Shown here: piece after piece, positions 2,110-64,000 of the stretch
Numbering within the stretch: the stretch's first letter is position 1
Layout: each line of letters starts with the position of its first letter
Assembly: GCA_030390025.1 (NCBI GenBank)
Contig: CM059431.1
Coordinates: 123,320,001-123,384,000 of the forward strand
Source of the DNA: Squalus acanthias
Lineage: Eukaryota
Direction of reading: 5' to 3'
DNA: 64,000 nucleotides
Notes under the pieces: generated by a model
The model's database searches: none
Seen by the model: the letters and a program-made list of their open reading frames with translations, nothing else
What the model was told of the DNA's origin: nothing
Program-made: the position numbers and the translations under genes

Positions 2110-2938
2110 AAAGCAATTTGAACTGACATTGCAATATAAGTATCAAAATAAGCTTGATACAGAGATCTGAACTGCATTTACATTTACTAAATTGCTTACG
2201 TAGAGTGACTGGATTAAAAAAAAGCCATTAACTGAAACTGGAGAAAAATACGTAATTGTTCCTACTTTCTTGATTAGCATCAGTGTTCAGTGGTTAGAGG
2301 AGAAAATTGGCCAGGGTTCAGGATCTTGAGTACTATCCAGTTATGCCTGCTGGGAATGCAAATATGTAGATGCCAGGTGGGGACAGGATTGAAGCTGTCT
2401 GTGATAGCCTCTTTAGTTAAATAATCTATTGACACAGAGGCCTGGATTTTGCCTTGCAAAATCATATATTTCTGGGTGGTTTTGCATTGTTAAGAAGAAG
2501 GAAATCAGGCAGTGTAGCTTACTGCTGCTATCACATCCCAAATAAAGGCCACCGACATTTTGGTCAGAAAACACCATGGGGTAGAAATTAGGTCGCGCCC
2601 CATTTGGGGCGCAAATATCGTCTGGACGCAAATATTAGCGCCTGGCGCTAATTATCGGCACTGACAGGAAACTTCACTTTTACCACCCCGGGACGTGAGT
2701 GGAGCGCTAAAGCAGGCGCTGCACACCTGTCTTAAGGCGCAAAGGCCAAGGAGTGAGGCGCTAACTCAGCGCGCGAGCGCAGCGCAGCTGCTGCCAGTTA
2801 GCGAGGGAACACAGACACACTGGCGCCGGACACTTCTTAAAGCGGGGGGGGGGGGCACTTGCTCCCCAGCCACACCCTGCTCATTGCAGCCTTGAATCTC
2901 AGCCTGGAGAGACCTGTGAATCCATTTTGCTGCCAAGC

Positions 2939-4814
2939 ATGGAGAGGGTGAGAGAACGCGCTCATCGCTTCACCGAGCGGGCCTTGGATGCTCTGGTTGG
3001 CGCAGTGGAGCGCAAACGATGTATGCTGTTGCCTGAGAGTGGCAGGAGGCCTTTGCCACGCGAGTTCAGAAGAGTATGGAGGGAGGTGGCTCAGAGCGTC
3101 TCCTCCAGGAGCATGGTGCCCAGGACCCATACTCAATGCCGCAAAAAGTTCAACGACCTCACTCGGGTCGTCAGGGTGAGTGGCTTTTTCTCAATACCTC
3201 TCCATCCCTCCATCTCAACCTCACTCTATGGCCAGAGGGTCTTAAAACCCCAATGCACAACACTCATCCAACACCTATGGCCCTTTCATCAAACACACAC
3301 ACACATTCCACACTTTGCATACAGTAAGGGCTATTCACCTATGGGAGGCACATCAGGCAAGACCATGGCTGTATACAGTAAGGGCTATTCACCTATGGGA
3401 GGCACATCAGGCAAGACCATGGCTGTATATTGTAAGGGCTATTCACCTATGGGAGGCAAATCAGGCAAGACCATGGCTGTATATTTACTCAGATGCTGTC
3501 CTTTTTCTTGCAGGCTAAGCTGGTTCATAATAGGAGACAGCAGCAACGGACAGGTGGAGGGCGGCCTCAGCTGCAACCCCTCAGCGATCTGGAGGAGCGC
3601 GTCCACAGGATTGTGGCAAGCCGGGTGATCGGTCCCGTCGCCACTGGAGACGCCGACCCGTTCTGGACAGCAATGGTAAGGTCATCACCTTTTTGTCCTC
3701 TGTCCTTCCACTTGTCCCTCACAACACCAGCCTTTGACACTTTCAATCCAACTTGCTAACTCGCTGCACTTATTCCTCCCTTACTGCCACCCTGTCCTCA
3801 CGCTAAAGCCACTCTTGTACCTCCCTGCTTTCAGATGGTGATTCACCAGCTGAGGAGACGGGCCCTCAAGCTGCCACTGGGAGTGATGCTGCAGCTGAGG
3901 AGGAAGAGGAAGCCAGAGTATCAGTGCCACCCTCTCCCGAGGAAGCCCATGCCCACACTGGGAACACGCCTTCCCCGGAGGGGAGCAGGGGGGAAGGGGC
4001 TGATGAGGGTGAAGCTCCAGGACCCAGCGGGCTGCAGCAACGCCATGGGGGGGGTAGGGAAGAACGGGGGCCTTCTCCCCAGAGGGAGAGTATGCCAGAC
4101 ACTCCTACTGCAATGGACGCAGAGGAGGAGCGGCTGATTGCAGAAATGAACACCCAGGCGGTGGGCATGCACACTGAGCTCATGGGTGCAGTGGGAAGGG
4201 TGCCCAAATGCATTGAGTCACTGGCAAGGAGTGTGGAGCACTTCGCTGTAGCACAGGCGGATGCCACACTAATGCTTAGTGCTGCAATTCAGTCACTGGC
4301 TGCCGTGATCTCATCTCTGACTGCTCTCATACAGACTCAGATTGAGGCCACGCGAGCACAGACTGCTGCCAACCTCGATGGTTCGTGCACATGTCCCCGG
4401 GGCTGTCACCGCGCCGCAGCAGGCCAGCAATCTGTTCTCCGGCAGATTGCTCCGGATGCTGAAGTGCTGCCCCGTGGGAGTGCCAGTGTGTCGGGCGAGC
4501 AGGGAGTTGCTGTCCTCTCTCACGATGACAGCATTCCTGCTGCCAACACTGTCACTTCTCCACTGCACTTGCCACCGCCTGTAGGACAGACTGCTGCCGC
4601 CCATGCAGAGTTGGTGCAGTCTGCAGCCGGGCCCTCCAGGCCCAGAAGTGGTCGAGGCCGTCCTTCAGGGGCATCTGCAGTGTCAGGGTCTGACGAGCAG
4701 CAGCCTTCCACCAGCCTTGCTGCAGCCACTGAGGTCCCATTACGGAGGAGCAGTCGGGTTAGAAGGGGGGAAGTGCGCAAGGGAAGGAGATCACCCTCGA
4801 AGGGCAAAAAGTAG
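2939..4814 (+). pseudogene. Harbinger Myb/SANT-like DNA-binding protein, 3 exons (2939-3175, 3514-3675, 3835-4814), 1-nt frameshift near 3658
   Basis: Exon 1 reads MERVRERAHRFTERALDALV...VWREVAQSV...RTHTQCRKKFNDLTRVVR (trihelix/Myb_DNA-bind type), with donor GTGAGT at 3176 and acceptor TTGCAG at 3513. Exon 2 reads AKLVHNRRQQQRTGGG, with donor GTAAG at 3676 and acceptor TTTCAG at 3834. The long exon 3 frame (ORF 3924-4814) needs phase 1 but exon 2 ends in phase 0. Confidence 0.85.
3320..3481. repeat. 54-bp tandem repeat x3 in intron 1 of the Myb-like gene
   Basis: TACAGTAAGGGCTATTCACCTATGGGAGGCACATCAGGCAAGACCATGGCTGTA at ~3320, 3374 and 3428. Confidence 0.95.
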
Positions 4815-5106: not shown

Positions 5107-6266
5107 CTAGAAGTGGCTTGCTATTAGCCGTTGACGGACGGCCCTTGCAGTTTGACCATTGTGGGCCGCCCTCCCGCCTTGGTGCTGCTGATGATCATCA
5201 TCCTCGTTCTCTTCCTCCTCTTCCTCCTCCTCCTCTGGTGGTGCTACAAGGCCTGGTGGCATTGGCTGGGTCCTGAGGATTGCCATGTTGTGCAACATGC
5301 AGCACACGACTACGAAGTTCGATACTTGCTCAGGCGAGTACTGCAGGGCTCCTCCGGAATGGTCCAGACAGCGGAACCGTTGTTTCAGCACGCCGATTGT
5401 GCGCTCAATAATGTTCCTGGTTGCTTGATGGCTTTCATTGTACCACAGCTCAGCAGGGGTGTTTGGCGTACGGAGCGGTGTCATCAGCCAGGTGCTCAAT
5501 GCGTACCCCTTGTCCCCGAGAAGCCAACCAACTGGCTGATGCGGTGCCTCGAAAACTTCTGCCACAGTAGTCTGGCGCAGGATAAAAGCATCGTGGCAGC
5601 TGCCAGGATAGTGGGCATTGACAGCGAGTATCACCTGTCTGTGGTCACAGACCAACTGGACATTCAAGGAATGGAACCCCTTTCTGTTCCTGAATTCCTC
5701 TGCATTCTCACGCGGAGCACGCAAAGCCACATGCGTGCAGTCAATGGCGCCCTGCACCATGGGGAAGCCCGCTACCCTCGCAAAGCCCAGAGCGCGGTCA
5801 CGCTGCTTGTCTGGGGTCATAGGGAAAGAGATGAACTCTCGTCTCCTTCTGAAGAGGGCATTGGTGACCTGCCGGATGCAGCGATGCACCGCGAACTGGG
5901 AGATATTGGCGAGGTCCCCAACAGCAGCTTGGAATGAGCCAGTGGCGTAGAAGTTCAAAGCCACGTGACCTTCACTGCCACTGACAGAGACGTCCTGGAC
6001 CTCAGCTGAGGCTGCAGATCTGGCTGCAGCAGGTGGCAGAGCTCAGTGACCACCTCCTTGCTGAATCGCAGCCTTCGCAAACACAGCTCCTCGGACATAT
6101 GGATGTAGGAGAGCTGTTCACGATATACCCTGGGAGGGTAAGCTCTCCTGTACATGCGCCTGATAGCCCTCCTCCGTCTGGCCATCATTGCCACTCTCTC
6201 TCTGCGTCTCTGTATCCTCCGATTCAGCTGGAGCAGGACGACGCCCCCAATCAGTGCAGCCCCCAT
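5107..6266 (-). pseudogene. PIF/Harbinger (HARBI1-like, DDE_Tnp_4) transposase, 1-nt frameshift at ~5965
   Basis: Motifs GAIDCTHV, FRNRKGFHSLNVQLVCD, PGSCHDAFIL, LLGDKGY and RNIIERTIGVLKQRFRCL. The N-terminus MGAALIGG...CLRRLRFSKEVV...LSVAVKVT is in the adjacent frame. The junction GTC AC- GTG GCT TTG AAC lacks one base. Confidence 0.93.
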
Positions 6267-8852: not shown

Positions 8853-9629
8853 TGATGTGGAGATGCCGGTGTTGGACTGGGGTGGACAAATGTGAGAAGT
8901 CGCACAACAGCAGGTTATAGTCCAACAGCTTTATTTGAAATCACAAGCTTTCGGAGCGCTGCTCCTTCGTCAGGTGAAGTGAAGAGATGTATATAGGCAC
9001 AGCATATATAGTCAGAGAACACAGCCAGATGATTACAGTTAATCTTTCCAACTGCCCTTTATCACACCTCGGCAGAGAGATAATCACGGCAGTCAAAGAT
9101 GTGGATGGTGTCCAAACAGGTCAGTCAGGAAAACATTACATCAAAGACAATGTGGCAGATGCTGGGGTCTGTATGGAAAACAAAAAACTTTTTTTGCTGG
9201 AAATCACAACAGGTCCGGCCGCATCTGTGTAGAGAGAACAAGCCAACGACGACTCGAGTCTGGATGACTCTACGTCAGGTGGGGTTACATGTAGCGTGAC
9301 ATGAACCCAAGATCCCGGTTGAGGCCGTCCTCATGGGTGCGGAACTTGGCTATCAGTTTCTGCTCGACGATTTTGCGTTGTCGTGTGTCTCGAAGGCCGC
9401 CTTGGAGAACGCTTACCCGAAGATTGGAGGCTGAATGTCCTTGACTGCTGAAGTGTTCCCCGACTGGGAGGGAACACTCCTGCCTGGCGATTGTTGCGCG
9501 GTGTCTGTTCATACGTTGTCGCAGTGTCTGCATGGTCTCGCCGATGTACCATGCTCCGGGGCATCCTTTCCTGCAACGTATGAGGTAGACAACGTTGGCC
9601 GAGTCACATGAGTACGTACCATGTACCTG
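8853..9629 (-). mobile_element. 5'-truncated Penelope-like element (GIY-YIG C-terminus + pseudo-LTR)
   Basis: ORF 9285-9680(-) reads NVVYLIRC..WYIGET..LRQRMNRH..VGEHF..EQKLIAKFRTHEDGLNRD, a PLE GIY-YIG domain. Flanking duplication GTTACAA at 8846-8852 and 9630-9636. Confidence 0.88.
8941..8977 (-). ncRNA. Minimal type I hammerhead ribozyme motif (Penelope pLTR)
   Basis: Minus strand TCAC-CTGACGA-A-GGAGC-AGC-GCTCC-GAAA-GC-TT-GTGA gives the CUGANGA/GAAA core, helix II GGAGC/GCTCC, helix I TCAC/GTGA and a palindromic AGCT in place of helix III. Confidence 0.75.
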
Positions 9630-14240: not shown

Positions 14241-16545
14241 CACTGGGGTTCATTTCTAGAAGGGTAGAATTGAAAAGCAGAGAAGTTCCGTTAAACTTGG
14301 AAACTTGGTTAGCCTGCACTTAGAGTGCACAGTTCTGGTCTCCATATTACAAAAAGGATATAGAGGCACTGGAGAAGATGCAAAAAAGATTTACAAGTAT
14401 GATACGGGAACTGAGAGGTTAGCCGCGATTTCCCCTACCTCGGCAGATCCGGTGCGGCCGGGGTCGGTGGTGGGTTGCCTTGAGCTCGCTGTCAAAAGTG
14501 ACCTTACGCTGATTGGGCTTGTTAAGCCAGCCCAGCGAGTTTCCCGGCCAATTGAAGGAAGTGGGTCTGATAACATCACTTGATGCATTGAGGTGCTACA
14601 AGCACTGCACAGAGGTGCACGGCTGCACCCAGGCACTCCCAGGACTCCCTCCATATGCTTATGGAGGAAGTCACAGCACGCAGGGAGGTCCACTTCCCTT
14701 CCAATGGGTGGAAGAGACTTCCCCAGAGGATCAACGCAGCCTGGTGGCACATTGCACAGGAGGACACAAGCAGGGATGTCGTTAGGAGGACCAGGCTGCA
14801 GTGGCGCAATCCTTTCAATGATCTCAGTAGTTCACGAAACGTTACTGCAAAGCCACACTCAACCTCATCCTGCTGTGCCACTCATCACATCCCCATCACT
14901 CTGCCTTCCCTACCCCACTCCTGCACATCCTTACTCACACCAACTTACCTTGCACCTCCACCCATCCCTCTCTATCTACATTATCAATACCCCATCTCAC
15001 TAGCCACCCCTCACACTCACCCTCATCCTAGTCTAATCATACCAACTAACAACATACAATGGGAGGCACTCGGGTGTTTTAACCAATGTTCATGTGACGT
15101 TTCTGGTAATGTGCTGTCAAACATTGAAATCTTTATTTTCAACACTTTGCGTTCTTGGAAAGATTTGTGTGAACCTTTGGAAGTGGCTTAGTGAGTTGCA
15201 GTGAATGGTGAGACATAACAGTACCCCCCGCAATGGCGAGGAGTGTGGAAGGAATGGCTTGGACATTGTATGGATGCTTTACGGTGTTGGTATGGGATGG
15301 TGCCAACCTGGTGCATCATGTGGCAGCCAGGGTGTACAGCGTCAAGTGAAGTAAATCTGGCTATGGTGAGGCCATCCCTGGCCTCCTGAGCAGCAATGTG
15401 GTCGGGTGCTGATGCCCTGTGTCCTTTGCAGCATCAGTTGATTGCAGAGAAGGTTGGTGTTGTTGTTGGTGCTGCTGTTTGCCTGATGCTGCTGGTGTTG
15501 GGGCTGATTGTGGTGTGATTCTGAGGAGCAAGGTGAGAGAGTATAAAAGGCACCCATGCTGATGTAATAGATGGCAGGTGAAGTTGAGATGACAGGAGCG
15601 ATGAAAGAGGTTGTTCCAATGAGGTGACACTGGATACAGAGTTTGCTCCAAACACTTGCAACCTGCATAAAGCTCAATATGTCTTCCAAATGCAGTAAGC
15701 AACAGCTTCTGACCTTGGAAAGTGAACAGCTGTGAGATGGGAGCTTTTATAGCACATTTGCAGCTGTCAAGTAAAGAAATGATATCATGTTGACACAACT
15801 CCCGACCTGCTGAGCTGACATGATCCCCGAGCAGCGGGGAACACGAGGACGACCTCATAAAATTTAAAGGTGAGCTCAAAATAGTTTTTAAGTGCCTGTT
15901 AACAAGCTCTTAATCATCTAATTTGCCTCCCCCGCCGCTTGGTGTCAGGTTTGTTCAGCGATGACAGACCCGACATCTGGGATATTAACATGGCGGCGGG
16001 TTGACAGCGGGTTCCCTACACGCTGTCAAAAAAAAACTTTCCCCACCCGACCCGCCACCGAACGAGCCCACTTACCCCCCAAAATATTCCCCCTGTTATA
16101 ACTATCAGGAAAGATTGATTAGCTTAGGGCTCTTTTCTCTCGAAAAGTGAAGGTGGATGGGTGAGCTAATACAGGTATATAAACTTATGAAGGGGTTTGA
16201 TAGGGTAAACGTAGAGAAGCTGTTTCCACTTGTGGGGGAAGTCGAAAGGGGTCTTAAATATAAGATAGTCACTAATAAATCCAATAAGGAATTCAGGAGA
16301 AACTTCTTTACCCAGAGAGTGATTAGAATATAGAACTTGCCACCGCATGGAATAGTTGAGGCGAATAGCATAGATGTATTTAAGGAGAAGCTAGATAAGT
16401 ACATGAGGGAGAAAGGAATATAAGGATATGCTGATAGAATTAGTTGAAGTAAGGTGGGAGGAGGTGTCATCTGGAGCATAAACACCGACATAGACCAGTT
16501 GGGCCGAATGGCCTTGTTTCTGTGCTGTAAATTCTGTGTAAAAGC
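14240..16545 (+). mobile_element. CR1 3' fragment split by a Harbinger derivative (14240-14421 and 16096-16545)
   Basis: CR1 ORF2 end remnants (cagttctggtctcc...aaggatatagaggcactggag; ggagaaacttctttacccagagagtg) are continuous across the insertion, with TTA duplicated. Confidence 0.7.
14422..16095 (+). mobile_element. Non-autonomous Harbinger deletion derivative (Myb exon-1 remnant + deleted transposase remnant), copy 1
   Basis: ORF 14655 reads MLMEEVTARREVHFPSNG..AAWWHIAQE..RRTRLQWRNPFNDL (Myb-like). Homologous to 25795-27889 and 41628-45410 in reverse orientation. Flanked by TTA. Confidence 0.8.
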
Positions 16546-19465: not shown

Positions 19466-20557
19466 GAAACATAGAAACATAGAAAAATAGGAGCAGGAGT
19501 AGGCCATTCGGCCCTTCGAGCCTGCTCCACCATTCAATATGATCATGGCTGATCCTCCATCTCAATACCATATTCCCGCTCTCTCCCCATATCCCTTGAT
19601 GCCTTTTGTGTCTAGAAATCTGTCTGTCTCCTTCTTAAATATATTCAGTGACTTGGCCTCCACAGCCTTCTGTGGTGGAGAATTTCACAGGTTCGCCACT
19701 CTCTGAGTGAAGAAATTTCTCCTCATCTCAGTCCTAAATGTCCTACCCCGTAATCTAAGACTGTGACCCCTCGTTCTAGACCCCCCCAGCCAGGGGAAAC
19801 ATCCTCCCTGCATCCAGTCTGTCTAGCCCTGTCAGAATGTTATATGTTTCAATGAGATCCCCTCTCATTCTTCTAAACTCTAGTGAATACAGGCCTAGTT
19901 GACCCAATCTCTCCTCATACAACAGTCCTGCCATCCCAGGAATCCGTCTGGTGAGCCTTCGCTGCACTCCCTCTATGGCAGGTATATCCTTTCTTAGGTA
20001 AGGAGACCAAAACTACACACAGTACTCCAGGTGTGGTCTCACCAAGGCCCTGTATAACTGTAGTAAGACATCCTTGCTCCTGTACTCAAATCTTCTTGCA
20101 ATAAAGGCCAGCATACCATTTGCCTTCCTAACTGCTTGCTGCACCTGCATGTTTGCTTTCAGTGACTGGTGTACAAGGACACCCAGGTCCCTTTGTACAT
20201 CAACATTTCCCAATCTATCACCATTTAAATAATACTCTGCCTTTCTGTTTTTCCTACCGAAGTGGATAACTTCACATTTATCCACGTTACACTGCATCTG
20301 CCATGTATTTGCCCACTCACTCAACTAGTCTAAATCACCTTGAAGCCTCTTTGCATCCTCCTCACAACTCACAATCCCACCCAGTTTTGTGTCATCAGCA
20401 AACTTGGAAATATTACATTTGGTTCCCTCATCCAAATCATTGATATATATTGTGAATAGCTGGGGCACAAGCACTGATCCCTGCGGTACCCCACTAGTCA
20501 CTGCCTGCCACACTGAAAAAGACCCATTCATTCCTTCTCTCTGTTTCCCGTCTGTTA
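19466..20557 (-). mobile_element. CR1/HER1 LINE 3' fragment (RT C-terminus + 3' UTR)
   Basis: [41 protein letters not shown] and RMRGDLIETY, ending in a gaaacata tandem tail. Confidence 0.93.
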
Positions 20558-20599
20558 CTTGCTGCACTTCTGGTATCAGCCGATCCACCCGGAATCCGA

Positions 20600-21410
20600 A
20601 GCCCCCCCCACAGCAATCTCCCCCCCCGGCCTCCACGATCTCCCCCCCACCCCATACTTCACGGTCTTCCCACAATCTCCACCATCTCCCCACAACCTCC
20701 ATGATCTCCTCACAACCTCCTCCCCGACCTCCATGATTTCTCCCCAACCCACGATCTCTCCCTGACCTACGATCTCCTCCAAACCTCCAAGATCGCCCCA
20801 CGACCACCACGATCTCTCCCCATCTGCCCCAACCTTCACGATCTCCCCCCCAACTGCCACGATCTCGCCACAACCTCCACGATCTCCCCCCGACCGCCAC
20901 AATCTTCCCTGATCTCCACAATCTCCCCACCACCTCCAAGATCTCCCCCCGACCTCCTCGATCTCCCCCGACCTCCCCCCGACTCACAATCTCCCCCTGA
21001 CCCACAATCTCCCCCCACCCAACCTCCAAGATCTCCCCCTGACCTCCAAGATCTCCCCTCGAACTCCATGATCTCCTCCCAACGCACAAGCTCCCCTGAC
21101 CCATGATCACCCCCCGACCCACGATCACCCTCTGACCCGTGATTCTCCTCAACCTCCACGATCACCCCCTGACCCACGCTCTCCCCCCGATCTCCACGAT
21201 CTCCCCTTGACCTCCACAATCTCCCCCTCGATGTCCACGATCTCCACCGACCCACAATCTCCCCAGACTCATGATCTCCCCAGAGCCATGATCTCCCCAG
21301 AGCCATCATCTCCCTAGACCCATGATCTCCCCAGACCCACGAGCTCGCTCCGATTTTCACGATCTCCCCATGACCGCCACAATCTCTCCCTCCCTCATTC
21401 CAGCTCCCCA
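20600..21410. repeat. Degenerate minisatellite (CCACGATCTCCCC-like units)
   Basis: Dozens of cacgatctcccc / cacaatctcccc / ccaagatctccc variants. Confidence 0.9.
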
Positions 21411-23989: not shown

Positions 23990-24740
23990 TATTTTCACTT
24001 GATTGACCTTGTTGAGCCCGCCCAGTGGGCTCAGCAGGCCAATTAAGGGCCACCAGGCAACAGGTGACATCACAGATTGACATTTCACCTGTCAAGAACT
24101 TTTGACAGATGAAATATCAGCGTTTGACAGCTCTGTGAAGATGTCAAACACTGACAATCTGTCTTCTAACTTGAGTCCTTCCTCTGAGGCTGAGTTAGAA
24201 ATCATTCCAGCACAGAAAACAGAGGCTGCAGTTTTTGACAGCACCACGGCCATTCTGCTTTCTGTGCCGGTGAGATTTCTGACTCCCGAGACCTGAAGGG
24301 CTGACACCTGCAGGAGGAAGTTATGGTAAGTAAAACTTTTTCCCACACTTTACACTTACCTTACACACTTACCTCTGCACACATGCACTCATCACTCACC
24401 TGCCCACCGGACATATCGACCCCTCCAACCCCTGCAGACCCACGGTCCGCCTCGCTAACTTGGCGTGGTTGGGACCTGTCGGGAAGCCCACATTTCACGA
24501 TTCCAAATAGGGATTAGGCAAAAAACTGCCTGTTAACTACCTGTTAACAGGCAGTTTATTGCCACTAATCCCCTTCCCGCCTCGGGGAGGCGGCTCCCAG
24601 CACAGGTAAGGTACCCGCCTCCAGCGAAACTGGCGTGGAGGCGGGTTGGGGGCGGGATGGGTTCGGGACTCCCGAATCTGCAACTTTAACCCCCCACACG
24701 CCTCCAAACCCGCCTCCACGGGTCAATGAAAATCCAGCCC
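23990..24740 (-). mobile_element. Harbinger-type MITE fragment; terminus shared with 31016
   Basis: The end cgcctccacgggtcaatgaaaatccagccc is near reverse-complementary to gggcagaattttcattgacccgtggagg at 31016. Confidence 0.6.
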
Positions 24741-25794: not shown

Positions 25795-26434
25795 CACCTC
25801 ATTGGAACAACCTCTCTCACCATTGGCAGATCGCTTCTGTCATCTCAACCTCACCAGCCATCTATTCCATCAGCATCGGTGCCTTAGAAAATATCTCAAC
25901 TTGTTCCTCAGAATTCCACCACGATCAGCCCTAACACCTGCATCACTGGGCACAACAGCAGCAACAACAACAACAACACCAACCTTCTCCGCAATCAACT
26001 GATGCTGCACAGCACACAGGGCATCAGCACCTAACCACATTGCTGCCCGGGACGCCAGGGATGGCCTCACCATAGTCAGATTTACTTCACTTGACCTTGT
26101 ATACCCTGGCTGCCACATGATGCGACAGCATCAAGCATCCCTACAATGCCCAAGCCATTCCTTTCACACTCATCACCATTGCGGGGGGTACTCTTATATC
26201 TCACCATTCACTGCAACTCATTAAGCCACTTCCAACGGTGCACACAAATATGTCTAAGAACGCAAAGCGTTGAAAATAAAGATTTCAATGTTTGACAGCA
26301 CATTACCAGAAACTTCACATGAACATTGGCTAAAACACCCAAGTGCCTAACCTTGTGTGTCATTAGTTGGTATGATTGGACTAGAGTGAGAAGTCGCACA
26401 ACATCAGGTTATAGTCCAACAGCTTTATTTGAAA

Positions 26435-26471
26435 TCACAAGCTTTCGGAGCGCTGCTCCTTCGTCAGGTGA
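26435..26471 (-). ncRNA. Minimal hammerhead ribozyme motif
   Basis: Identical to 8941-8977. Confidence 0.75.
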
Positions 26472-27112
26472 AGTGAAGAAATACAAATGGGCACAGCATA
26501 TATAGTCAGAGAACAATGCCAGACAACTACAGTTAATCTTTCTAACTGCCCTTTATCACACCTCGGCAGAGAGACAATCACGGCAATCAAAGGTGTGGAT
26601 GGTGTCCAACCAGGTCAGTCAGGAAAACATTACATCAAAGACGATAGCAAAATACAACAAAGACAATGAGGTGGGGTCACAAGGGGTCAAATGTGGCAGA
26701 TGCTGGGGTCTGTATGGAAAACAAAAAACTATCACAGCAGGTCCAGCCGCATCTGTGTAGAGAGAACAAGCCAGTGACGACTCGAGTCTGGATGACTCTA
26801 CGTCAGGTGGGGTTACATGTAACGTGACATGATGCGGCCGGACCTGCTGTGATAGTTTTTTGTTTTCCATACAGACTGCAGCATCTGCCACATTTGACCC
26901 CTTGTGACCCCACCTCATTGTCTTTGTTGTATTTTGCTATCGTCTTTGATGTAATGTTTTCCTGACTGACCTGGTTGAACACCATCCACACCTTTGATTG
27001 CCGTGATTGTCTCTCTGCCGAGGTGTGATAAAGGGCAGTCAGAAAGATTAACTGTAATCATCTGGCAGTGTTCTCTGACTATATATGCTGTGCCGATATG
27101 TATTTCTTCACT

Positions 27113-27150
27113 TCACCTGACGAAGGAGCAGCCGCTCCGAAAGCTTGTGA
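27113..27150 (+). ncRNA. Minimal hammerhead ribozyme motif
   Basis: TCAC-CTGACGA-A-GGAGC-AGCC-GCTCC-GAAA-GC-TT-GTGA. Confidence 0.75.
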
Positions 27151-28716
27151 TTTCAAATAAAGCTGTTGGACTATAACCTGGTGTTGTGCGACTTCTCACT
27201 TTTGTCCACCCCAGTCCAACACCGGCATCTCTGCATCATGATTGGACTAGGATGAGGGTCAGTGTGAGGGGTGGCTTGTGAGATGGGGATGTGATAATGT
27301 AGATGGAGAGGAAGGAGTGGAGGTGCAAGGTAAGTTGGCGTGAGTAAGGATGTGGTTGAGTGTGGCTTTGCAGAAATGTTTCGTGATCTACTGAGATCAA
27401 TGAAAGATTTGCACCTCTGCAGCCTGGCCCTCCTGACGACATCACTGCTTGTGCCCTTCTGTGCAATGTGCAACCAGGCTGCGTTGATTTCCTGTGGAGG
27501 TGTCTTCCACCCATGGGAAGGGAAGAGAGCCTCCCTGCATGCTGTGACCCCCTCCATAAGCATATGGAGGGAGTCATGGGAGAGTCTGGGTGCAGCCGTG
27601 CACCTCTGTGCAGAGCTTGTCAGTGTTTGCAGCACCTCAATGCTGACAGCAGAATTGTCAAATTACATTTGGACATGGTCCCTTTAAGGAAACCGGCTGA
27701 TGACGTGTCATCAAATGACGTCATCAGATCCTTTTCCTTTTAATTGGCCGGGATCTTCGCAGGGCGGGCTTAACAAGCCCAATCAACGTAAAATCACTTC
27801 AACAGAGTGGAATGGAGCCAACAGCAGGGTCAGGACCCGCCACTGACCCCGGCCGCCCCAGACCCACCTCGGTAGGCGAAATCGCAGCTAAAGAGAGGGA
27901 GAGAAGGATTGGATTAAGAGCAAGAGGAAAAAGAGACAGAAAGGAAAACAATTTACGACCTGCAGGGCTGAGACTCCACAGTTTCAATTGTTCCTTTTGT
28001 GGGCTTTCAAGTTTGAGTGGCATGTGAGGACCATAAATCACCCCAGTAACAGAGTCCTTACACTATGAAATTGCAGCCCTAACTTTCTGTGGCAAGTTTG
28101 ATTCATATTTATGATGCAACTCCAACAATGTGTTGACACTCATGGGGAGGTTGACGACAAGCTCCCGTTTTAGGGAGGCTAACGCCAATTTGTGGCAATT
28201 CGCTACTCACGGCGTATCTCTTCCTTGCCACAAATTGCTGTTTTTTTTATGCCTTGATAATGGTGTGCACCATGAACTCGGACATTATATTTCCAGCAAA
28301 TGCTGGGCCAATAGTTTAAGGGCAATCATTTTACTATGCTTACGATCTCTGTAATCCCAATTTATTCTTGCCTGGCAAAATGCCATTAAATTCTTTAATG
28401 CAATCCAAGTGCTTTGTGTGCACTGGGAATATTTGTCCTTTGCTTTATGGTACAATGATGAAACATATTAAAAAATATCTAAGTTGACATTTATAACAAT
28501 AACTAGTGTATGTGAGATCAGATGTGGCTTGAAAAACTCCTGCAATAGCACAAATACCAAAAATTTATACAGGAGGATCTGAGACAACATCTAATATTAT
28601 ATTTATCTTCATGGCTAATATTTATCTTCATGGCTAATTAATATTAGTATGTATTACATATTTAATAACATCTCTCTATTGTCTGCATACTATTTGCTAC
28701 CTGACAGTATTAATGT

Positions 28717-29468: not shown

Positions 29469-29759
29469 GTAATGTTTGCAAAATTAGTTAGGTTATGCCT
29501 GAATGCATATTAGAGATTCTTTAGATCCTCATGTTCATTCAAAGCTTTAAATATATTATTACTAATTGCTTTACTATATATTGCATACCACGTCAAAATG
29601 CACACATTTAGTTGCAGTTTATACATGATATAGGAGCCACATTCTGTTTCTACAGTGGAAAATAATGACCACCATTGATTTTAATGGGGGAGGAGCTATG
29701 ATAATTAAATTCTCACTCTTTTTTGCTAGGATAATGGGGAAGTGGCGCAATTAATAGCG

Positions 29760-31955
29760 TAAGCTCCTCCCAGAGTTGCAATGCGGATTCTGCCCACTAA
29801 GGGGCACAATGGACATGATCATCACCGCACGTCAACTACAAGAGAAATGCAGGGAACAGCACCAACTGCTGTACATGGCCTTCTTTGATCTCATAAAGGC
29901 CTTCAACACTGTCAACCATGAGGGATTATGGAGTGTCCTCCTCAAATTCAGCTGCCCTCAAAAGTTTGTCACCATCCTCCGCCTGCTTCATGATGATATG
30001 CAAGCCGTGATCCTGACCAACGGATCCACCACAGACCCAATTCACGTACAGACCGGAGTCAAGCAAGGCTGTGTCATCGCACCAACGCTCTTCTCGATCT
30101 TCCTTGCTGCAATGCTCCATCTCACCCTCAGTAAGCTCCCCGCTGGAGTGGAGCTAATCTACAGAACAAATGGGAAACTGTTCAACCTCCGTTGCCTCCA
30201 GTCCAGATCCAAGGTCATCCCATCATCTGTCATCAAATTACAGTATGCAGATGACACACTCTGAGGTCGAACTCCAAACCATTGTTAACACCTTCACCGA
30301 AGCATACGAGAGCATGGACCTTACACTAAACATCTGTAAGACAAAGGTCCTCTATCAACCTGCCCCCGCCACACAGTACTGCTCCCCAATTATCAAAATC
30401 CATGACAAGGCTTTGGACAACGTGGACCACTTTCCATACCTCAGGAGCCTACTGTCAACAAGGGCAGACATCGATGACAAAGTCCAATACCGCCTTCAGT
30501 ATGCTAGTGCAGCCTTTGGTGGCCTGAGGAAGAGATTGTTTGAAGACCAGGACCTCAAACCCAGCACCAAGCTCATGGTCTACAGACCAGTAGAGATACG
30601 CGCCCTCCTGTATGCTTCAGAGACATGGATCATGTACAGCAGGCACCTCAAAGCATTGGAGAGGTACCACCAATGCTGCCTCCGCAAGATCCTGCAAATC
30701 CATTGGCAGGATAGGCGCACCAACGTCAGTGTTCTCGCTCAGGCCAACATCCCCAGCATCGAAGCTTTGACCACGCTCGATCAGCCCCGATGGACGAGCC
30801 ACATCGTTCGCATGCCCGATATGAGAATCCCAAAACAAGCGCTCTACTCGGAGCTACGACATGGCAAAAGAGCCCCAGGTGGGCAGAGGAAACGCTTCAA
30901 GGACTTCCTCAAAGCCTCCTTGAAAAAGTGCAACATCCCCACCGACACCTGGGAATCCTTGGCCTAAGACCACACGAAGTGGAGGAGAAGCATCCGGGAA
31001 GGCGCCGAACACCAAGGGCAGAATTTTCATTGACCCGTGGAGGTCGGTTTAGAGGCGTGTGGGGGGTTAAAATTGTGAAAACTGGCGGGCGGGCACAAGC
31101 CCGCCTCCACGCAATTTTCATTAAATCGTGTCTGCTGGTCCCGACTCTGTCTCGTCTCTAAGAGGCGGGTTAGGCTGTTAAGGCCCTTAACATGTACTAA
31201 ATTGCCTCTATAATGCCATTTTGAGAGGCCTTTGTGCTTTTAACCCTTTTTCTACGTGAAGCATGCCTGTTCTGAACCACGAATGTGAAACCTGGCGGGA
31301 GCACATTTCGATAGCTGACTATCAGCTGGGGTCCACTATTACAACGGAGATGTTGTAGTAGTAGTAGTAGTAGCAGTAGGAGGAGGACGAGGAGGAGGAG
31401 GAGGAGGAGGAGGAGAAAAAAATATCTGGGAGTGGTGGTACAAAAATACCTGGGAGCAGACTTAGGGCTGCTGCTGCTCATTTTGCCTCCAGGTCCTCTC
31501 ACAGCAAAGGCCAGGCATTCTTTGCAAACCTTCAATACAGCAGCAATGATGACATCATCAGAGGCGACTTTCTGACTGAAAACACTAATTGGGTCATGGG
31601 TTCCCACATGCTGGAACTCAATTGCCCAATTAGGTGAAAATTGCATCAATCTCCCACATCCAATTGCAGTCGGGTGGATAACACGAAAAGTGGATAACAC
31701 GACCCCAGCCCACCCCAGTATCAAAATCCAGCGCCTTGAGTCTCTTCGCTGGGAGCAAGCGGAAGCCAAGCGCAAACATCGGAAGGAGCGCACGTCAACC
31801 GAAGCACCCCACCCACCCGCCCCTTCAACCACCGTCTGCCCCACCTGTGACAGAGACTGTAGGTCCCGCATTGGACTCATCAGTCACCTGAGAACTCATT
31901 TTTAGTTTGGAAGCAAGTCATCCTCGGTTCCGAGGGACTGCCTAAGAAGAAGAAG
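29760..31955 (+). mobile_element. RTE-clade LINE 3' portion (frameshifted RT to C2H2 finger), split by a MITE at 31014-31732
   Basis: QCGF..RGTMDMI..ARQLQEKCREQ..LYMAFFDL.KAF, GVKQGCVIAPTLF, QYADD, RIPKQALYSEL, CPTCDRDCRSRIGLISHLRTH, and an (AAG)n tail at ~31944-31955. Confidence 0.93.
31014..31732. mobile_element. Harbinger-type MITE inserted in the RTE; contains a (GTA)n(GGA)n tract
   Basis: Termini gggcagaattttca ... tcaaaatccagc. RTE sequence resumes at cttgagtctcttcgc. Confidence 0.75.
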
Positions 31956-37742: not shown

Positions 37743-40482
37743 TAGAATCATAGAATCATAGATGATAGGAGCAGGAGTAGACCATTCGGCCCCTCTAGAC
37801 TGCTCCGCCATTCAATGCGATCATGGCTGATCATCCAAATTCAGTACCCTGTCCCTGCTTTCTCCCCATATCCCTTGATCCCTTTAGCTTTAAGAAATAT
37901 ATCCAACTCCTTCTTGAATCTATTTAATGAATTGGCCTCTACTGCCTTCTGTGGCAGAGAATTCCACAGGTTCACCACTCTCTGGGTGAAGAAATTCCTC
38001 CTCATTTCTGTCCTAAATGGCTTACCCCTTATCCTTAGACTCTGACCCCTGGTTCTGGACTCCCCGACCATCGGGAACATCCTTCCTGCATCTAGTTTGT
38101 CCTGTCCTGTCAGAATTTTATAAGTTTCAATGAGATCCCCTCTCATTCTTCTAAACTCCAGCGAGTACAAGCCCAATCGACCCAATCTCTCTTCATACTT
38201 CATTCCTGCCATCCCAGGTATCAGCCTTGTGAATCTTCGCTGAACTCCTTCCATGGCAAGAACATCCTTCCTCAGATAAGGCGACCAAAACTGCACACAG
38301 TACTCAAGGTGTGGTCTCACCAAGGCCCTGTACAACTGCAGCAAGACATCCTTGTTCCTGTACTCAAACCCTCTCGCTATGAAGGCCGACATACCATTTG
38401 CCTTCTTAACCGCCTGCTGCACCTGCATGCTTACCTTCAGCGACTGGTGCACAAGGACACCCAGGTCTCATTGCACTTCCCCTTCTCCCAATCTATTGCC
38501 ATTCAGATAATAATCTGCCTTTCTGTTTTTGACACCAAAGTGGATAACCTTGCATTTATCCACGTTATATTGCATCTGCCACGCTTCTGCCCAATCACCC
38601 AACCTGTCCAAATCATCCTGGAGTTTCTCGGCATCCTCCTCGCAACATACCATCGTAGTTTCCTTTATTTAAATTCAGGACCCTAGTCTCTGATTCAACT
38701 ACTTCACTCTCCATCCTAATGAAGAATTCTATCATATTATGATCGCTCCGACCCAAGGGGCCTCGCACAACAAGATTGCTAATTAATCCTTTCTCATTGC
38801 ATAATACCCAGTCTAAGATGACCTGATCTCTGGTTGGTTCCTCGACATATTGGTCCAGGAAACCATCCCGTAAACACTCCAGGAATTCCTCCTCCATAGT
38901 ATTGTTACTAATTTGGTTAGCCCAATCTATATGTAGATTAAAGTCACCCATGATGACTGCTGTGCCCTTATTGCACGCTTCTCTAATTTCCCTTTTAATG
39001 CCATCCCCAACCTCCACATTACTGTTTGGAGGTCTATGTATCACTCCCATTAACGTTTTCTGCCCCTTGTTATTTCTCAGTTCAACCCATACAGATTCCA
39101 CAACGTAAGAGCTAATATTCTTCCTTTCAATTGTGTTAATCCCCTCTTTAACCAGCAATGCTACCCCACCTCCCTTTCCTTTTTGCCTATCTTTCCTGAA
39201 TATTGAGTACCCCTGGATGTTGAGTTCCCAGCCTTGGCCACCCTGGAGCCATGTTTCGGTAATCCCAATCAAATCATAATAATTTACCTCTATTTGCGCA
39301 GCTAATTCATCCACCTTGTTCCGAATGCTCCTTGCATTGAGACACAAAGCCTTCAGGCTTGTTTTTTTAACACTCTTAGACATATTAGAATTAGTATTTA
39401 CTGTGGTCATGTTTGATTTAAGCCGTTGTTTTCTCTGACTGCCACTTTTGTTTTTCTCCTTCCTATCTTTTGCTTTTATCCTTGTTTCCCTTTCCTCTGT
39501 CTCCCTGCTCAGGTTCCCAACCCCCTGCCATTTTAGTTTAAACCCTCCCCCAGAGCACTAGCAAACACTCCCCCTAGGACATCGGTCCCGGCCCTGCCCA
39601 GGTATATACCGTCCGGTTTGTACTGGTCCCACCTCCCCCAGAACCGGTTCCAATGCCCCAGGAATTTGATCCCTCCCCCTTGCACCATTCCTCTAGCCAC
39701 ATATTCATTTGAAATATCCTTCTATTTCTACTCTGACTAGCACGTGGCACTGGTAGCAATCCTGAGATTACTACCTCTGAGGTCCTATTTTTTAATTTAC
39801 CTCCTAACTCCCTATTTTCTGCTTTTAGGACCTCATCCCATTTTTTACCTATATCGTTGGTACCTATATGCACTACGACAACTGGCTGTTCACCCTCCCC
39901 TTCCAAAATGTTCTGTAGCTGCTCTGAGACATCCTTGACCCTTGCACCAGGGAGGCAACATACCATCCTGGAGTCTCGTTTGTGGCCACAGAAACACCTA
40001 TCTATTGCCCTTACAATAGAATCCCCTATCACTATAGCTTTCCCACTCTTTTTCCTCCCATCCTGTGCAGCAGAACCACCTACGGTGCTAGGAAGTTGGC
40101 TGCTGCTGTCTTCCCCTGATAAGCCATCTCCCTCAACAATATCCAAAGCGGTATATCTGTTTGAGAGGGGGGTGGCCACAGGGGACCCCTGCACTACCTG
40201 CCTGCACCTATTACTCTGCCTGGTGGTCACCCATTCCCTTCCTGCCTGTACACCCTTTACCTGCGGTGTGACCAACTCCCTAAACGTGCTAGCCACGATG
40301 TCCTCAGCATCGCGAATGCTCCAGTATGTATCCATCCGCAGCTCCACTTGCAATGCGGTCTGTCAGTAGCTGCAGCTGGATACACCTCCCGCACACATGG
40401 TTGTCAGGGACACAGGAAGTGTCCCTGATTTCCCACATAGTGCAGGAAGAGCATGTCACAGCACCGAGCTGTCCTGCCATGA
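37743..40482 (-). mobile_element. CR1 LINE with SGNH-esterase ORF1, APE endonuclease and ORF2 C-terminus; RT core deleted
   Basis: ORF1 39574-40353 has AIVIGDSIVR and VVVHIGTNDIG. EN 38613-39410 has LNARSIRNK, GITETWL, MGDFN and LGRSDHN. This joins directly at ~38650 to post-FADD sequence CEEDAEKLQDDLD, then LVRPHLEYCVQFWSP. Confidence 0.92.
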
Positions 40483-41627: not shown

Positions 41628-44600
41628 TAGGCTGCGATTTTGCCGGCGCTCAGAGGGCGGGTGCGGAGGCGGATCCGCTGTCATAATCAAAATGATTGAC
41701 AGTGGGTTGGGAAGTCGTTCTGAACCCACCTCCATGGAAGTTTCCAAAGTGTCGGGTCTGCGATTTCAGAACAGACCCGACATTAAGCAGCGGGAGAGGC
41801 ATTTAAGATAGTTACATGCTTGTTAACTACTATTTTGCCAGCCTTCTTATACTTTACCACTTTTTTAATGAGGTTCTCGTCGTTCGGAGATCACGTCAGA
41901 TAAGTAGGTCGGGTTGTCTATGTCTCAGCATTGTTGTGAATAGGTGACAGCTGCAAAAGTGGTATAAATGCTACCATTTCACAGCTGTTCATTTTCCAAT
42001 GTCAGAAGCTTCAGCCTTCAGGACTTGGAGACACTTTTGAGCTGTATGCAGTTTGGAAGTGTTTGGAGTAATCTCTCTATCCACTGTCATCTCCTTGGAA
42101 CAGCTCTCTCACCATTGACAAATCGCTTCTGTCATCTCAACTTCAGCTGCCATCTATTCCAGCAACATCGGTGCCCTTGAAAAAAATCTCACCTTGGTCC
42201 TCTGAATCCCTCCATGATCAGCCCCAACACCAACAACAACACCAACCTTCTCTGCAATCCACTGATGCTGCACAGAACACAGGGCATCAGCACCCGACAA
42301 CATTGCTGCACGGGAGGCCAGCGATGGCATCACCATGGCCAGATTTACTTCACTTGACGCTGTACACCGTGGCTGCCACATGATGCGCCAGGTTGGCACC
42401 ACCCCACCATAAAGCATCCCTACAATGTCCAAGCCATTCTTTCACACTCATCACAATTGGGGAGGGGGGGGGGAAAGTTATTTCTCAACATTCACTGCAA
42501 CTCACTGATACACTTCCAATGGTGAGCACAGATTTGTCCAATAAGGCAAAGTGTTGAAAATAAAAATTTCAATGTTTGACAACACATTAACAGGAAATTA
42601 ATATGAACATTGGCTAAAACACCCAAGTGCCTACGCTTGTGTGTTGTTAGTTGGTATGCTTGCATTAGGATGAGGGTGAGTGTGACAGGTGGCTACTGAG
42701 ATGGGGAAGTGATAACATAGATAGACAGGGATGGGTGGAGGTGCAAAGTAAGTTGGTGTGAGTAAAGATGTGCAGGAGTAGGGTAGGGAAGGCAGCGTGA
42801 GGGGAATGTGATGAGTGGCACAGCAGGATGAGGTTGTGTGTGGATTTGCAGTAACGCTTCGTGATCTACTCTGATCATTGAAAGGTTTGCGCCACTACAG
42901 TCAGGTCCTCCTGACGACATCCCTGCTTGTGTCCTCCTGTGCAATGTGCAACCAGGCTGCGTTGGTGTCATGGGGAGGTCTCTTCCACCCTTGGAAGGGA
43001 AGAGAACCACCCTGCGTGCTTTGACTCTCTCCATAAGCATATGGAGGGAGTCATGGGAGAGCCTGGGTGCAGCCATGCACCTTTGTGTAGTGCTTGTCTG
43101 TGTTTGCAGCACCTCAATGCTGTAGAACACTGACAGCACAACTGTCAAAATGAACATAAGAACATAAGAAATAATAGCAGGAGTAGGCCAATCGGCCCCT
43201 CGAGCCTGCTCCGCCATTCAATAAGTTAATGGCTGATCTGATCCTAACCTCAAATCTAAAGAACACAAGAAGTAGGAGCAGGACCCGGCCACTCAGCCCC
43301 TGGGCCCGCTCCGCCACCCACAGGGCCTTGACCGATCCGAACTCAGCCTCATGTCCAATTTCCTGCCTGCTCCCCATAACCCCTAATTCCCTTTACTTCT
43401 AGGAAACTGTCTATTTCGGTTTTAAATTTATTTAATGATGTAGCTTCCACAGCTTCCTGGGGCAGCAAATTCCACAGACCTACTACCCTCTGAGTGAAGA
43501 AGTTTCTCCTCATCTCAGTTTTGAAAGAGCAGCCCCTTATTCTAAGATTATGCCCCCTAGTTCTAGTTTCACCCATCCTTGGAAACATCCTTACCGCATC
43601 CACCCGATCAAGCCCCTACACAATCTTATATGTTTCAATAAGATCGCCTCTCATTCTTCTGAACTCCAATGAGTAGAGTCCCAATCTACTCAACCTCTCC
43701 TCATATGTCCACCCCCTCATCCCCGGGATTAACTGAGTATACCTTCTTTGTACTGCCTCGAGAGCAAGTATGTCTTTTCTTTAGTATGGACACCAAAACT
43801 GTATGCAGTATTCCAGGTGCGGTCTCACCAATACCTTATATAACTGCAGCAATACCTCCCTGTTTTTATAATCTATCCCCCTAGCAATAAAAGCCAACAT
43901 TCCGTTGGCCTTCTTGATCACCTGCTGCACCTGCATACTAACTTTTTGATTTTCTTGCACTAGGACCCCAGATCCCTTTGTACTGCAGTACTTTCCAGTT
44001 TCTCGCCATTAAGATAATAACTTGCTCTCTGATTTTTCCTGCCAAAGTGCATAACCTCACATTTTCCAATATTGTAATGCATCTGCCAAATCTCCGCCCA
44101 CTCACCCAGCCTGTCTATATCCCCTTGTAGGTTTTTTATGTCCTCCTCACTTTCTACTTTCCCTCCCATCTTTGTATCATCTGCAAACTTTGATATCTTA
44201 CACTCGGTCCCCTCCTCGAAATCGTTAATATAGATTGTAAAGAGTTGGGGACCCAGCACCGACCCCTGCGGAACACCACTGGCTACTGGTTGCCAGTCTG
44301 AGAATGAACCATTTGTCCCAACTCTCTGCTTCCTGTTAGATAACCAATCCTCCACCCATGCCAGAATATTACCCCCAATCCAGTGATTTTTTATCTTGAG
44401 CAATAATCTTTTATGTGGCACCTTGTCGAATGCCTTCTGGAAGTCTAAATACACTACGTCCACTGGTTCCCCTATATCCACCCTGTACGTTATGTCCTCA
44501 AAGAACTCAAGCAAATTTGTCAGACATGACTTCCCCTTCATAAAGCCATGCTGACTTTGTCCTATTAAATTATGTTTATCTAAATGTTCCGTTACTGTCT

Positions 44601-45410
44601 CCTTAATAATAGACTCCAAAATTTTACCACCACAGATGTTAGGCTAACTGGTCTATAATTTCCAGCCTTCTGCCTACTACCCTTTTAAATAAGGGTGTTA
44701 CATTAGCAGTTTTCCAATCTGCCGGGACCTTTGCTGAGTCCAGGGAATTTTGGAAAATTATTACCAAAGCATCCACAATCCCTACACCACTTCCCTCAAG
44801 ACCCTAGGATGTAAGCCATCAAGTCCAGGGGATTTATCCGCCTTGAGTCCCATTATTTTACTGAGAACCAATTCCTTAGTGATTTTAATCGTATTTAGCT
44901 CCTCCCCCCCTAGAGCCCCCTGTTTGTCCAGTGTTGAGATATTCTCAGTGTCCTCTACCGTAAAGATTGAATCAAAATATTTGTTCAGCATTTTTGCCAT
45001 CTCCATGTTTCCCACCATTAATTTCCCGGTCTCATCGTCTAAGGGACCTACGTTTGCCTTAACCACCCTTTTTCTTTTTATATAACTATAGAAACTCTTG
45101 CTATCTGTTTTTATATTTTTTGCTAATTTATTTTCATAATCTATCTTCCCTTTCTTAATCAATCCTTTAGTTACTTTTTGCTGTCTTTTGAAGACTTCCC
45201 AATCTTCTATCCTCCCACTAAGTTTGGCTACCTTATACGTCCTTGTTTTTAGTTGGATACTATCCTTAATTTCTTTACTGTGGACATGGCCCCTTTAAGG
45301 AAACCGGCTGATGACACATCATCAAATGACATCATCAGACCCACTGTCTTTTAATTGGTTGGGCTTAACAAGTCCAATCATCGTAAATTCACTTCAACAG
45401 AGTGGCGGGT
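41628..45410 (-). mobile_element. Non-autonomous Harbinger deletion derivative, copy 3 (contains CR1 43152-45280)
   Basis: Left end ggctgcgattttgccgg. Body colinear with copies 1 and 2. Resumes at tggacatggcccctttaaggaaaccggctgatgac (45280), matching 27670. Confidence 0.8.
43152..45280 (-). mobile_element. CR1 LINE 3' ~2.1 kb (RT domain)
   Basis: [41 protein letters not shown] and KFADDTK. (ACATAAGA) tail. Flanking tgaacat/tggacat duplication. Confidence 0.93.
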
Positions 45411-62256: not shown

Positions 62257-62342
62257 TGTAAAGTTTCGCAATTATCGCGATTCAAAATAACACAAGAGAA
62301 GCAGATTCGTTTGATCAGTTTTATTAAACGAAATGCTGTCAT

Positions 62343-62718
62343 AGAGCAGAAACTGATAGCCAAGTTCCGCACTCATGAGGATGGCCTCAATCGCGATATC
62401 GGGTTCATGTCACGATACAGAACGTGACTTGACATCATGGCCGGTCTTTCCAGGTTTTTTTTAAACCCAAATGGAGAGGATATGCAGCCAGCAGGTGTTT
62501 TGACACGTTGGACCCCCTGGGACACATCTCATTGTCTTGGCTGTGCTCTTAGTGTGTCTTTGATGTAGGGAAAGATTTGAATACATTTTTTCTGTGTTTA
62601 TATTGTGAATTCTGGGAGATTCTCTCACAGCTACCCTACCTGAAGAAGGGGCGACAGCTCCGAAAGCTTGTAATTTTAAATAAATCTGTTGGACTATAAC
62701 CTGGTGTTGTGCGACTTC
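62343..62718 (+). mobile_element. Short Penelope-like insertion within the LTR
   Basis: IEQKLIAKFRTHEDGLNRDIGFMSRYRT* followed by the pLTR end (ctgttggactataacctggtgttgtgcgacttc). Absent from the LTR copy at ~1430. Confidence 0.88.
62637..62672 (+). ncRNA. Minimal hammerhead ribozyme motif
   Basis: TAC-CTGAAGA-A-GGGGC-GACA-GCTCC-GAAA-GC-TT-GTA. Confidence 0.7.
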
Positions 62719-64000
62719 TGATAATAAAGGACACAGAAGCCTGTAAAATGGCCGCTGAGCATCGTGGCAGAAGCTTCCAGAAACACAGTGGGCAGACAAA
62801 ATGGCATTGAATATACATTTAGTATAAGATTGGATCATACTCGGTAAACACTGATAAAGACAGGATGCAACCCGTTTGCATTTGGAACAATAGCAAAGAT
62901 ATAAGTGCTGGAATCAGTTTTCCTATGTACAGAAAGGATCATTGTACTGGGCAATCGAAGGCCCATCCAGACACATCAATACACAAATACCCCCCCGGCT
63001 CTACAATGAGAGAGACATTGACGGGTGATTAAGTCAGTATTCGGGGGCCCCCAAAACCAGTCAGTGAGACGATTCATACACATCCTGGCTGGGTCAACAA
63101 TGGGGAAAACATTAACGGATAGTTGGCCAGTTTCAGGTGCTACCGAAACCCGTTAAAGAAGACAACCGCCCCATGCTGGGAGTTTTGTGCGCCAATATTA
63201 CACAAAGGACAAACATTAAGATTCGAGCGGGAGATAAGGAGGACACATCACTATAACTATAGAGAACAAATTTCCATCGCTCTCTTATTCGCTTGCCTCT
63301 TCATGAACTCGCTTGACTTGTGGGCTCTTGATTTTCTCTCTGGACTTTGTTGACTCTTGACTTTAAGCCACACTGGTCGGTTATTCAAGTGTTGGGTGGA
63401 GCTCAATCGGAACGAGCCGCCCCGACAAGGGCAAGTAACAGGGTACACCATCCCGAGTGTCGGTAAACGGTGTCTGGACCCGGAGGCCCGAAGAGACGAG
63501 ACGAGACGAGAAGAAGACGAGAAGAATTCACGTGCCGCCACGGTCAGTAAACCCCGACCGCGCCCGAAAAATATAAATAAAGAACTTTTCTTTGAGTTCT
63601 CCCGACAACCTGTATCGAGCACAGGAAGACTCTTCTTTGAACTGTGTCCGAGGTCTGTCGAGTTCTTCATGACAACAGGGAGTCTGGCCTGCTTTTCGCA
63701 GCAGCGAAAGTAAACAAGTGGGGTGCAGAGACCCTTCCAAACACGTGACAGTCAGGCGCTGCAGCGAAACGAGCCGAGTGCCTCACTTTAAAATCTCCGA
63801 AATTAAACGAGTGGTGAGCATGATTTCCGATCCTACAAATCTAGACGTAGTGTAGGTATTATTAAGGGAGGGTGTTTTAATAAGGTTAAGATATAATGTG
63901 TTCCCCTTTCTACGATGTGCCGTGTGTTCTCCATTTTCCACAGACCAAGCTTTATGAATGTATGTATACTTGTACTATCGTTGATTTGCGCCTATGACAT

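Follow-up and report, generated by a model that had tools for sequence, protein, structure and literature searches.

Two head-to-head truncated copies of a Penelope-like element, probably placed by a single insertion event, form a hammerhead-bearing fold-back in the Squalus acanthias genome

The window analysed here is a stretch of 64,000 nucleotides of the Squalus acanthias genome (assembly GCA_030390025.1, contig CM059431.1, positions 123,320,001 to 123,384,000 of the forward strand), and all positions refer to it. An 853-base insert at 26385-27237 interrupts an older interspersed repeat and is bracketed by an exact 13-bp target site duplication (TSD), ATGATTGGACTAG, at 26372-26384 and 27238-27250. 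The insert is composed of two copies of the 3' end of a Penelope-like element, facing each other across an inversion junction. The features of the locus are as follows:

25795..27891, no strand: older interspersed repeat hosting the insert, with paralogues at ~14.4-16.0 kb and ~41.7-43.1 kb
26372..26384, plus strand: left copy of the TSD, 13 bp, an exact repeat with its empty site in the paralogues
26385..26832, minus strand: left copy, 448 nt, a 5'-truncated 3' end of the element that spans from the close of the ORF to the tail-less terminus, colinear with the sibling copy at 8853-9629
26435..26471, minus strand: minimal type I hammerhead found by descriptor, predicted cut after 26439, helix III a palindromic AGCU
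26471..26504, minus strand: putative TATA-like plus initiator-like motif found by pattern, facing left, out of the element
26754..26830, minus strand: unpaired spacer, 77 nt, the extra 5' part of the left copy, identical to the sibling in 76 of 79 nt
26813..26830, minus strand: the RT-GIY-YIG ORF's final five codons with its stop (MSRYM*), from comparison with the sibling
26831..26832, no strand: inversion junction, a 2-nt overlap common to both copies in the sibling alignment
26831..27237, plus strand: right copy, 407 nt, the 5'-truncated 3' end of the element with its tail, from comparison with the sibling
27080..27113, plus strand: putative TATA-like plus initiator-like motif found by pattern, facing right, out of the element
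27113..27150, plus strand: minimal type I hammerhead found by descriptor, with cleavage predicted after 27146 and an additional C in loop II
27201..27237, plus strand: tail, 37 nt, on this arm only and also present on the sibling at 8853
27238..27250, plus strand: right copy of the TSD, an exact repeat

The chance of such a TSD is about 7e-6 with 10 nt of slack granted at either end. Its sequence is single in the two host-repeat paralogues of the window, near 15.0 kb (12/13 identity) and near 42.7 kb (10/13 identity), and the empty form is also found in contigs from two DNA runs, where one flank runs straight into the other. The 13-bp duplication is therefore a true target duplication. Loose contig ends in two DNA runs number 10 and 11 at 26384, and 40 and 43 at 27238. 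The original prediction of a single insertion with a perfect 13-bp TSD is upheld, as the duplication is exact, one TSD encloses both copies, and the site is single in the empty paralogues. A 24-nt inverted repeat (88%) at 24000-24023 and 27762-27785 brackets the host repeat and perhaps represents the subterminal repeats of a non-autonomous DNA transposon.

The inverted arms, 26385-26753 (369 nt) and 26831-27200 (370 nt), differ by 12 substitutions and one indel over 370 columns, in agreement with the arms of ~370 bp proposed for this locus, whose coordinates were right. The arms are 96% alike and contain perfect paired runs of up to 99 bp; seven of the 13 differences cluster within 65 nt, which is not significant (p 0.064). 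The sequence between the arms had been taken for a loop of ~77 nt. Its length is indeed 77 nt, but it is no separate loop: the spacer is the 5' continuation of the left copy and agrees with the sibling in 76 of 79 nt. It also carries five codons and the stop of the ORF at 26813-26830, so that the earlier description of the insert as consisting of pLTR sequence only is slightly off, while the absence of a usable ORF stands. The left copy has 77 extra nucleotides at its 5' side and the right copy 37 extra nucleotides at its 3' side; as neither arm is contained in the other, one was not simply copied from the other. Alignment with the sibling shows that the right copy begins 77 nt further downstream in the element than the left copy, and that the two overlap by 2 nt at the true junction, 26831-26832, which refines the position of ~26815-26845 given before. 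The junction is not palindromic. The 37-nt tail at 27201-27237 is unpaired and confined to the right arm, and was absent from the earlier description.

Two further Penelope-like copies in the window, recognised by sequence comparison, serve to identify the family:

8853..9629, minus strand: sibling copy, plain 5'-truncated, with the GIY-YIG coding end, a hammerhead, a tail and a 7-bp TSD, and no inverted arm
62343..62719, plus strand: more distant Penelope-like copy with a hammerhead and a tail-less end, no inverted arm and no visible TSD

The coding end of the sibling at 8853-9629(-) is open, and this copy has a 47-nt deletion relative to the arms of the insert. Its endonuclease fragment matches PF01541 (GIY-YIG) at 22.9 bits against a cut-off of 22.6, and is 94% identical to a protein of Heptranchias perlo that also holds an RT domain. 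Most named protein matches of the fragment are from sharks; a PDB sequence search with it returned no matches. Several annotated isoforms of shark genes (e.g. XRCC5, septin 5a, USP8) contain part of the endonuclease, as either exonised copies or annotation artefacts. The insert can be placed among EN+ Penelope-like elements by an RT plus C-terminal GIY-YIG family, the TSD, the inverted 5'-truncated copy and the tail at one end, and the original assignment to a Penelope-like insertion in which an inverted segment is combined with minimal hammerheads is borne out in both identity and layout. The closest homolog has, read by eye, a CX4CxxC linker and CCHH in the endonuclease, the window copies being truncated before the linker. 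A CX2-5CxxC motif within the linker that connects RT with EN is described as marking the Neptune and Nematis clades (PMC8557442), and judging by the homolog the family of the insert looks Neptune/Nematis-type.

The distant copy ends tail-less, 5 nt from the end point of the left copy, and the tailed (8853) and tail-less (62719) ends each recur separately within the window. The fold-back is one of three Penelope-like insertions in the window; the other two have no inverted arm, and neither carries the 26831-26832 junction. The distant copy was inserted in an LTR-like repeat. Inverted copies of this ~1.5-kb repeat, 81% identical and with TG...CA-type ends, occupy 45-1519 and 62257-64000 and are possibly solo LTRs; the copy at 45-1519 provides the empty site for the insertion at 62343.

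The hammerhead motifs of the insert, 27113-27150(+) and 26435-26471(-), occur one per strand, with H17 at 27146 and 26439. With a full descriptor of the minimal hammerhead, four matches are obtained in the window, located at 27117(+), 26467(-), 8973(-) and 62640(+); 30 shuffles each give zero. By this measure the coordinates first given for both motifs, and the predicted cut after 27146(+), are right. All four motifs in the window sit in Penelope-like ends. The bare core pattern is not above chance in the window (6 matches against 4.8 expected). Rfam yields no hammerhead match around the locus at E up to 10 and no match of any kind at gathering level across the window; none of the four weak matches around the locus is a hammerhead, and that to mir-1791 reflects the hairpin only. 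On inspection, the conserved core, the extra base after A9, the G10.1-C11.1 pair, the palindromic remnant of helix III and a short helix I are all present, and the distant copy at 62640 displays a compensatory change in helix I, from CAC/GUG to UAC/GUA. With the bare core and Rfam giving no signal, the identification relies on the descriptor, the context and this one compensatory change.

Two bases only separate A15.1 from U16.1, and helix III therefore cannot close in the monomer, while the AGCU palindrome permits a dimer. The dimer fold is predicted to be possible (-23 and -21 kcal/mol) but not to be the minimum (-32 and -31 kcal/mol). When the full insert is folded as a transcript of either strand, helix II has a predicted probability of 0.0, each motif being paired with the opposite arm. 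Nothing stands out in the fold predicted for the beginning of the outward transcript, 27110-27250 (z -0.82), and the hammerhead does not form in it. We regard the hammerheads as passengers of the pLTR sequence. By the folding models, transcription of the whole insert would bury them in the hairpin, and in transcripts running outward from the putative promoter motif of the pLTR only a dimer could cut.

In each arm this motif comprises a TATA-like element 30 nt before an initiator-like element, placed shortly before the hammerhead and pointing outward. The search pattern was modelled after the description in PMC3846280, according to which rotifer pLTRs have the same TATA/Inr-like arrangement. 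The pattern is present in the three close copies and occurs 10 times in the window against 2.3 expected. It recurs in two copies of the host-repeat family, at 15720-15751(-) and 41963-41994(+). Going by their orientation, transcripts from the putative outward motifs would leave the element and form no hairpin. As the motifs of both arms face outward, a hairpin RNA would need read-through from outside.

We interpret the insert as two head-to-head, 5'-truncated 3' ends of one family, produced in one event by priming on both target strands, with the hammerheads as passengers and the whole as an inert, single by-product; to this account in its entirety we assign a probability of about 0.85. An RT-GIY-YIG protein would have cut both target strands 13 nt apart. 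The bottom strand would have primed at the outer start site, giving the tailed copy, and the top strand at the inner start site, giving the tail-less copy; both cDNAs would then have stopped early, annealed over 2 nt and been filled in. The available text of PMC11167929 describes a purified lizard PLE protein that cleaves and extends both strands, with reverse transcription starting at two sites that bound the tail. It presents the PLE hammerhead as dispensable for insertion in vitro and inactive without the protein, and does not count inverted insertions among the reconstituted products. The biochemical mechanism is borrowed by analogy from an element of the Poseidon clade, whereas the family of the insert appears to be of the Neptune/Nematis type. 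The last eight TSD bases, 26377-26384, match six of the eight element bases just past the tail-less end, as do 0.57% of the 8-mers of the window; the match came to notice only afterwards and carries no weight as evidence here, and primer-template pairing at the left junction is a possible explanation of it. Later gene conversion could be hidden among the 13 arm differences.

The inversion might have arisen in other ways: by a self-primed fold-back, in which the cDNA copies itself, by two separate insertions, or by a later rearrangement. Self-priming on an antisense template has been proposed in PMC3846280 for head-to-head Penelope inversions with palindromic junctions, and the 96% likeness of the arms speaks for it, but the junction here is no palindrome. 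The geometry also runs against it. The spacer is colinear with the tail-less arm, opposite to what the fold-back of a tail-primed cDNA would give, and the fold-back of a tail-less cDNA cannot supply the tail; since, in addition, neither arm is contained in the other, simple self-copying fits worse than dual-strand priming. Two insertions sit poorly with the presence of both copies inside one TSD. We regard this group of origins as unlikely. A by-product origin is retained in another proposal, that read-through of the insert yields a 370-bp hairpin which feeds siRNA or ADAR pathways and helps to silence the family. The predicted hairpin is stable (-715 kcal/mol for the plus and -730 kcal/mol for the minus strand, with perfect runs of up to 99 bp), and in Penelope-carrying strains of Drosophila siRNAs are reported to map precisely to the inverted regions of rearranged copies (PMC3681739). 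The promoter-like motifs of the insert, on the other hand, face outward, so that transcription from them would not cover the two arms together. A search for host exons nearby recognised none, with no match to Pfam among 150 short frames (140 of 166 candidates of 62-119 aa and 10 longer ones), which is a weak test for an intron; the domains otherwise recognised in the window are those of transposons only. Such a dsRNA function is possible on the folding models and has its Drosophila precedent, but it needs read-through from outside, and we hold it to be quite improbable. The original prediction had gone further, to a hairpin RNA with a ribozyme near its 3' end. This combination fails, as the hairpin transcript has no free ribozyme and the outward transcript no hairpin.

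The prediction had also allowed for a non-autonomous, retrozyme-like unit copied whole with the exact junction, which we consider very improbable. The hammerhead cores and the ends are intact on both arms, cis sequences consisting of the pLTR only can support mobilisation in trans according to PMC3846280, and an origin of animal retrozymes from pLTRs has been argued for (10.64898/2026.07.22.740005). Two tandem hammerheads of the same sense are needed, however, as described in the same source, while the insert has one per strand, head to head. Both are of the type that requires a dimer, and the folding prediction places both of them fully inside the hairpin, helix II having a probability of 0.0 in the full-length transcript. 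A recopied unit would be expected to homogenise its arms or to share arm variants among its copies, and there is no second copy in the window. Within the element, the bin containing the junction has the lowest summed contig depth in two of three runs (30,944 in run X1, where the next-lowest bin has 104,114; 291 in run X15, where it has 2,132) and the third lowest in run X3, where summed depth is no copy number and the Logan contigs contain under half of the sampled words of the stretch. Run X15 is RNA by guess only; the contigs show neither strand nor locus, and arm depth is not locus-specific. The junction is bridged by none of the 24 pieces listed out of 57,790, and 15 of 272 contig joints are listed. 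The depth at the junction speaks somewhat against a unit of high copy number and is no proof either way for a small family. Contigs of viruses, prokaryote genomes and metagenomes gave no match to a 27-nt family pattern, which is what one would expect of shark DNA, and raw reads of another organism (run X21) contributed 11 partial reads, too distant for use.

Within the account of dual-strand priming, the two arms may have been copied from two different family RNAs in one event, by a dimeric RT-endonuclease priming both target strands. We put this forward tentatively, at somewhat less than an even chance. With a single template for both arms, each difference between them ought to be a private mutation. 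The three of the 13 sites that fall among the 40 of 51 variant rows listed suggest otherwise, as at these the letters of both arms look common in the family by contig depth. Summed contig depth is noisy, and ties between the arms blur the assignment to either, which qualifies the following proportions, given for runs X3, X1 and X15: at 27040 the left-arm letter amounts to 73%, 50% and 54% of the right-arm depth, the remainder being listed as no other letter; at 26489/27095, where three letters occur, left-arm contigs show the right-arm letter in 3%, 25% and 25% and right-arm contigs show the third letter in 62%, 78% and 82%; at 26486 the right-arm letter amounts to 85%, 27% and 4% of the left-arm depth. 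A CpG that has decayed may account for the difference at 27040. Gene conversion would leave the same picture as two templates, and so would a tandem source whose two pLTRs had diverged. The sibling base matches the left arm at five of the 13 differences, the right arm at six and neither at two, a split that alone does not separate age from two templates. An incomplete collection of the literature on twin priming in Penelope-like elements contained no earlier report of arms from two templates. If the proposal is true, shark fold-backs are fossil records of a two-template twin-priming step, and the way in which Penelope-like elements come by their inverted repeats would be settled by the arm types of thousands of such fold-backs; arms of single insertions that routinely come from different subfamilies would favour priming by a two-template dimer over self-priming. 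Shark genomes hold enough copies for a computational test of arm origin.

The layout of the insert is already published for endonuclease-bearing Penelope-like elements, and the insert adds another instance. Descriptions in PMC3846280 and PMC8557442 include an inverted 5'-truncated copy, a TSD of 8-10 bp (in rotifers) and a tail of 30-40 bp at one end. The insert resembles the canonical EN+ unit in its inverted 5'-truncated copy, the tail at one end only, the TSD and the TATA/Inr-like motif in the pLTR. It departs from that unit in the truncation of both copies, which leaves hardly any ORF, and in its non-palindromic junction; its TSD is 13 bp long, against 8-10 bp in the rotifer examples of PMC3846280. 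Pairs of minimal hammerheads lying 100-700 bp from each other on opposite strands were reported in metazoan PLEs in 2014 (PMC4209133), with no cleavage by the single motif and low cleavage by dimers. The pair in the insert, 650 bp apart, lies within the range given there, while its helix II has 5 bp against 7-8 bp in Schistosoma in the same account. Sharks are not named in the available main text of PMC4209133, and the supplementary alignments of the cited papers may already list shark motifs.

Like PAc, the Poseidon element of Anolis carolinensis described in PMC11167929, the insert indicates two RT start sites separated by the tail. It differs from PAc in clade, its family having the CX2-5CxxC linker, and in its left junction, which matches at six of eight bases where PAc is described as priming without homology. 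The similarity to twin priming of L1, as presented in PMC11702581, lies in the priming of a second cDNA by the second target end, the joining by microhomology and the preserved TSD. L1, in contrast, inverts an upstream, non-overlapping part of one RNA, whereas both cDNAs of the insert cover the same 370 nt, so that two templates or two pLTR units are needed. With the non-LTR retrozymes described in 10.64898/2026.07.22.740005 the insert shares its non-coding nature, its derivation from the pLTR and the type I hammerhead; those, however, are head-to-tail tandems with a hammerhead per unit, and the insert is a head-to-head pair. The insert is likely an ordinary, one-off insertion scar and not a working ribozyme device. 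By itself the locus matters little, being a further Penelope-like insertion of the truncated kind. It offers a clean example, in which the empty site, both start sites and the junction are all readable, of inverted repeats whose mode of formation in Penelope-like elements is described as still undefined in PMC8557442.

Other mobile elements are found elsewhere in the window. Remnants of decayed LINEs, with domains for RT, apurinic endonuclease and an esterase-like ORF1, lie at 19466-21392, 29758-30264, 37745-40362 and 43270-44643. A Myb/SANT-like frame at 2765-3628(+) and a DDE_Tnp_4 transposase frame at 5107-6042(-) face each other, and we take them to be the gene pair of a Harbinger-type transposon.
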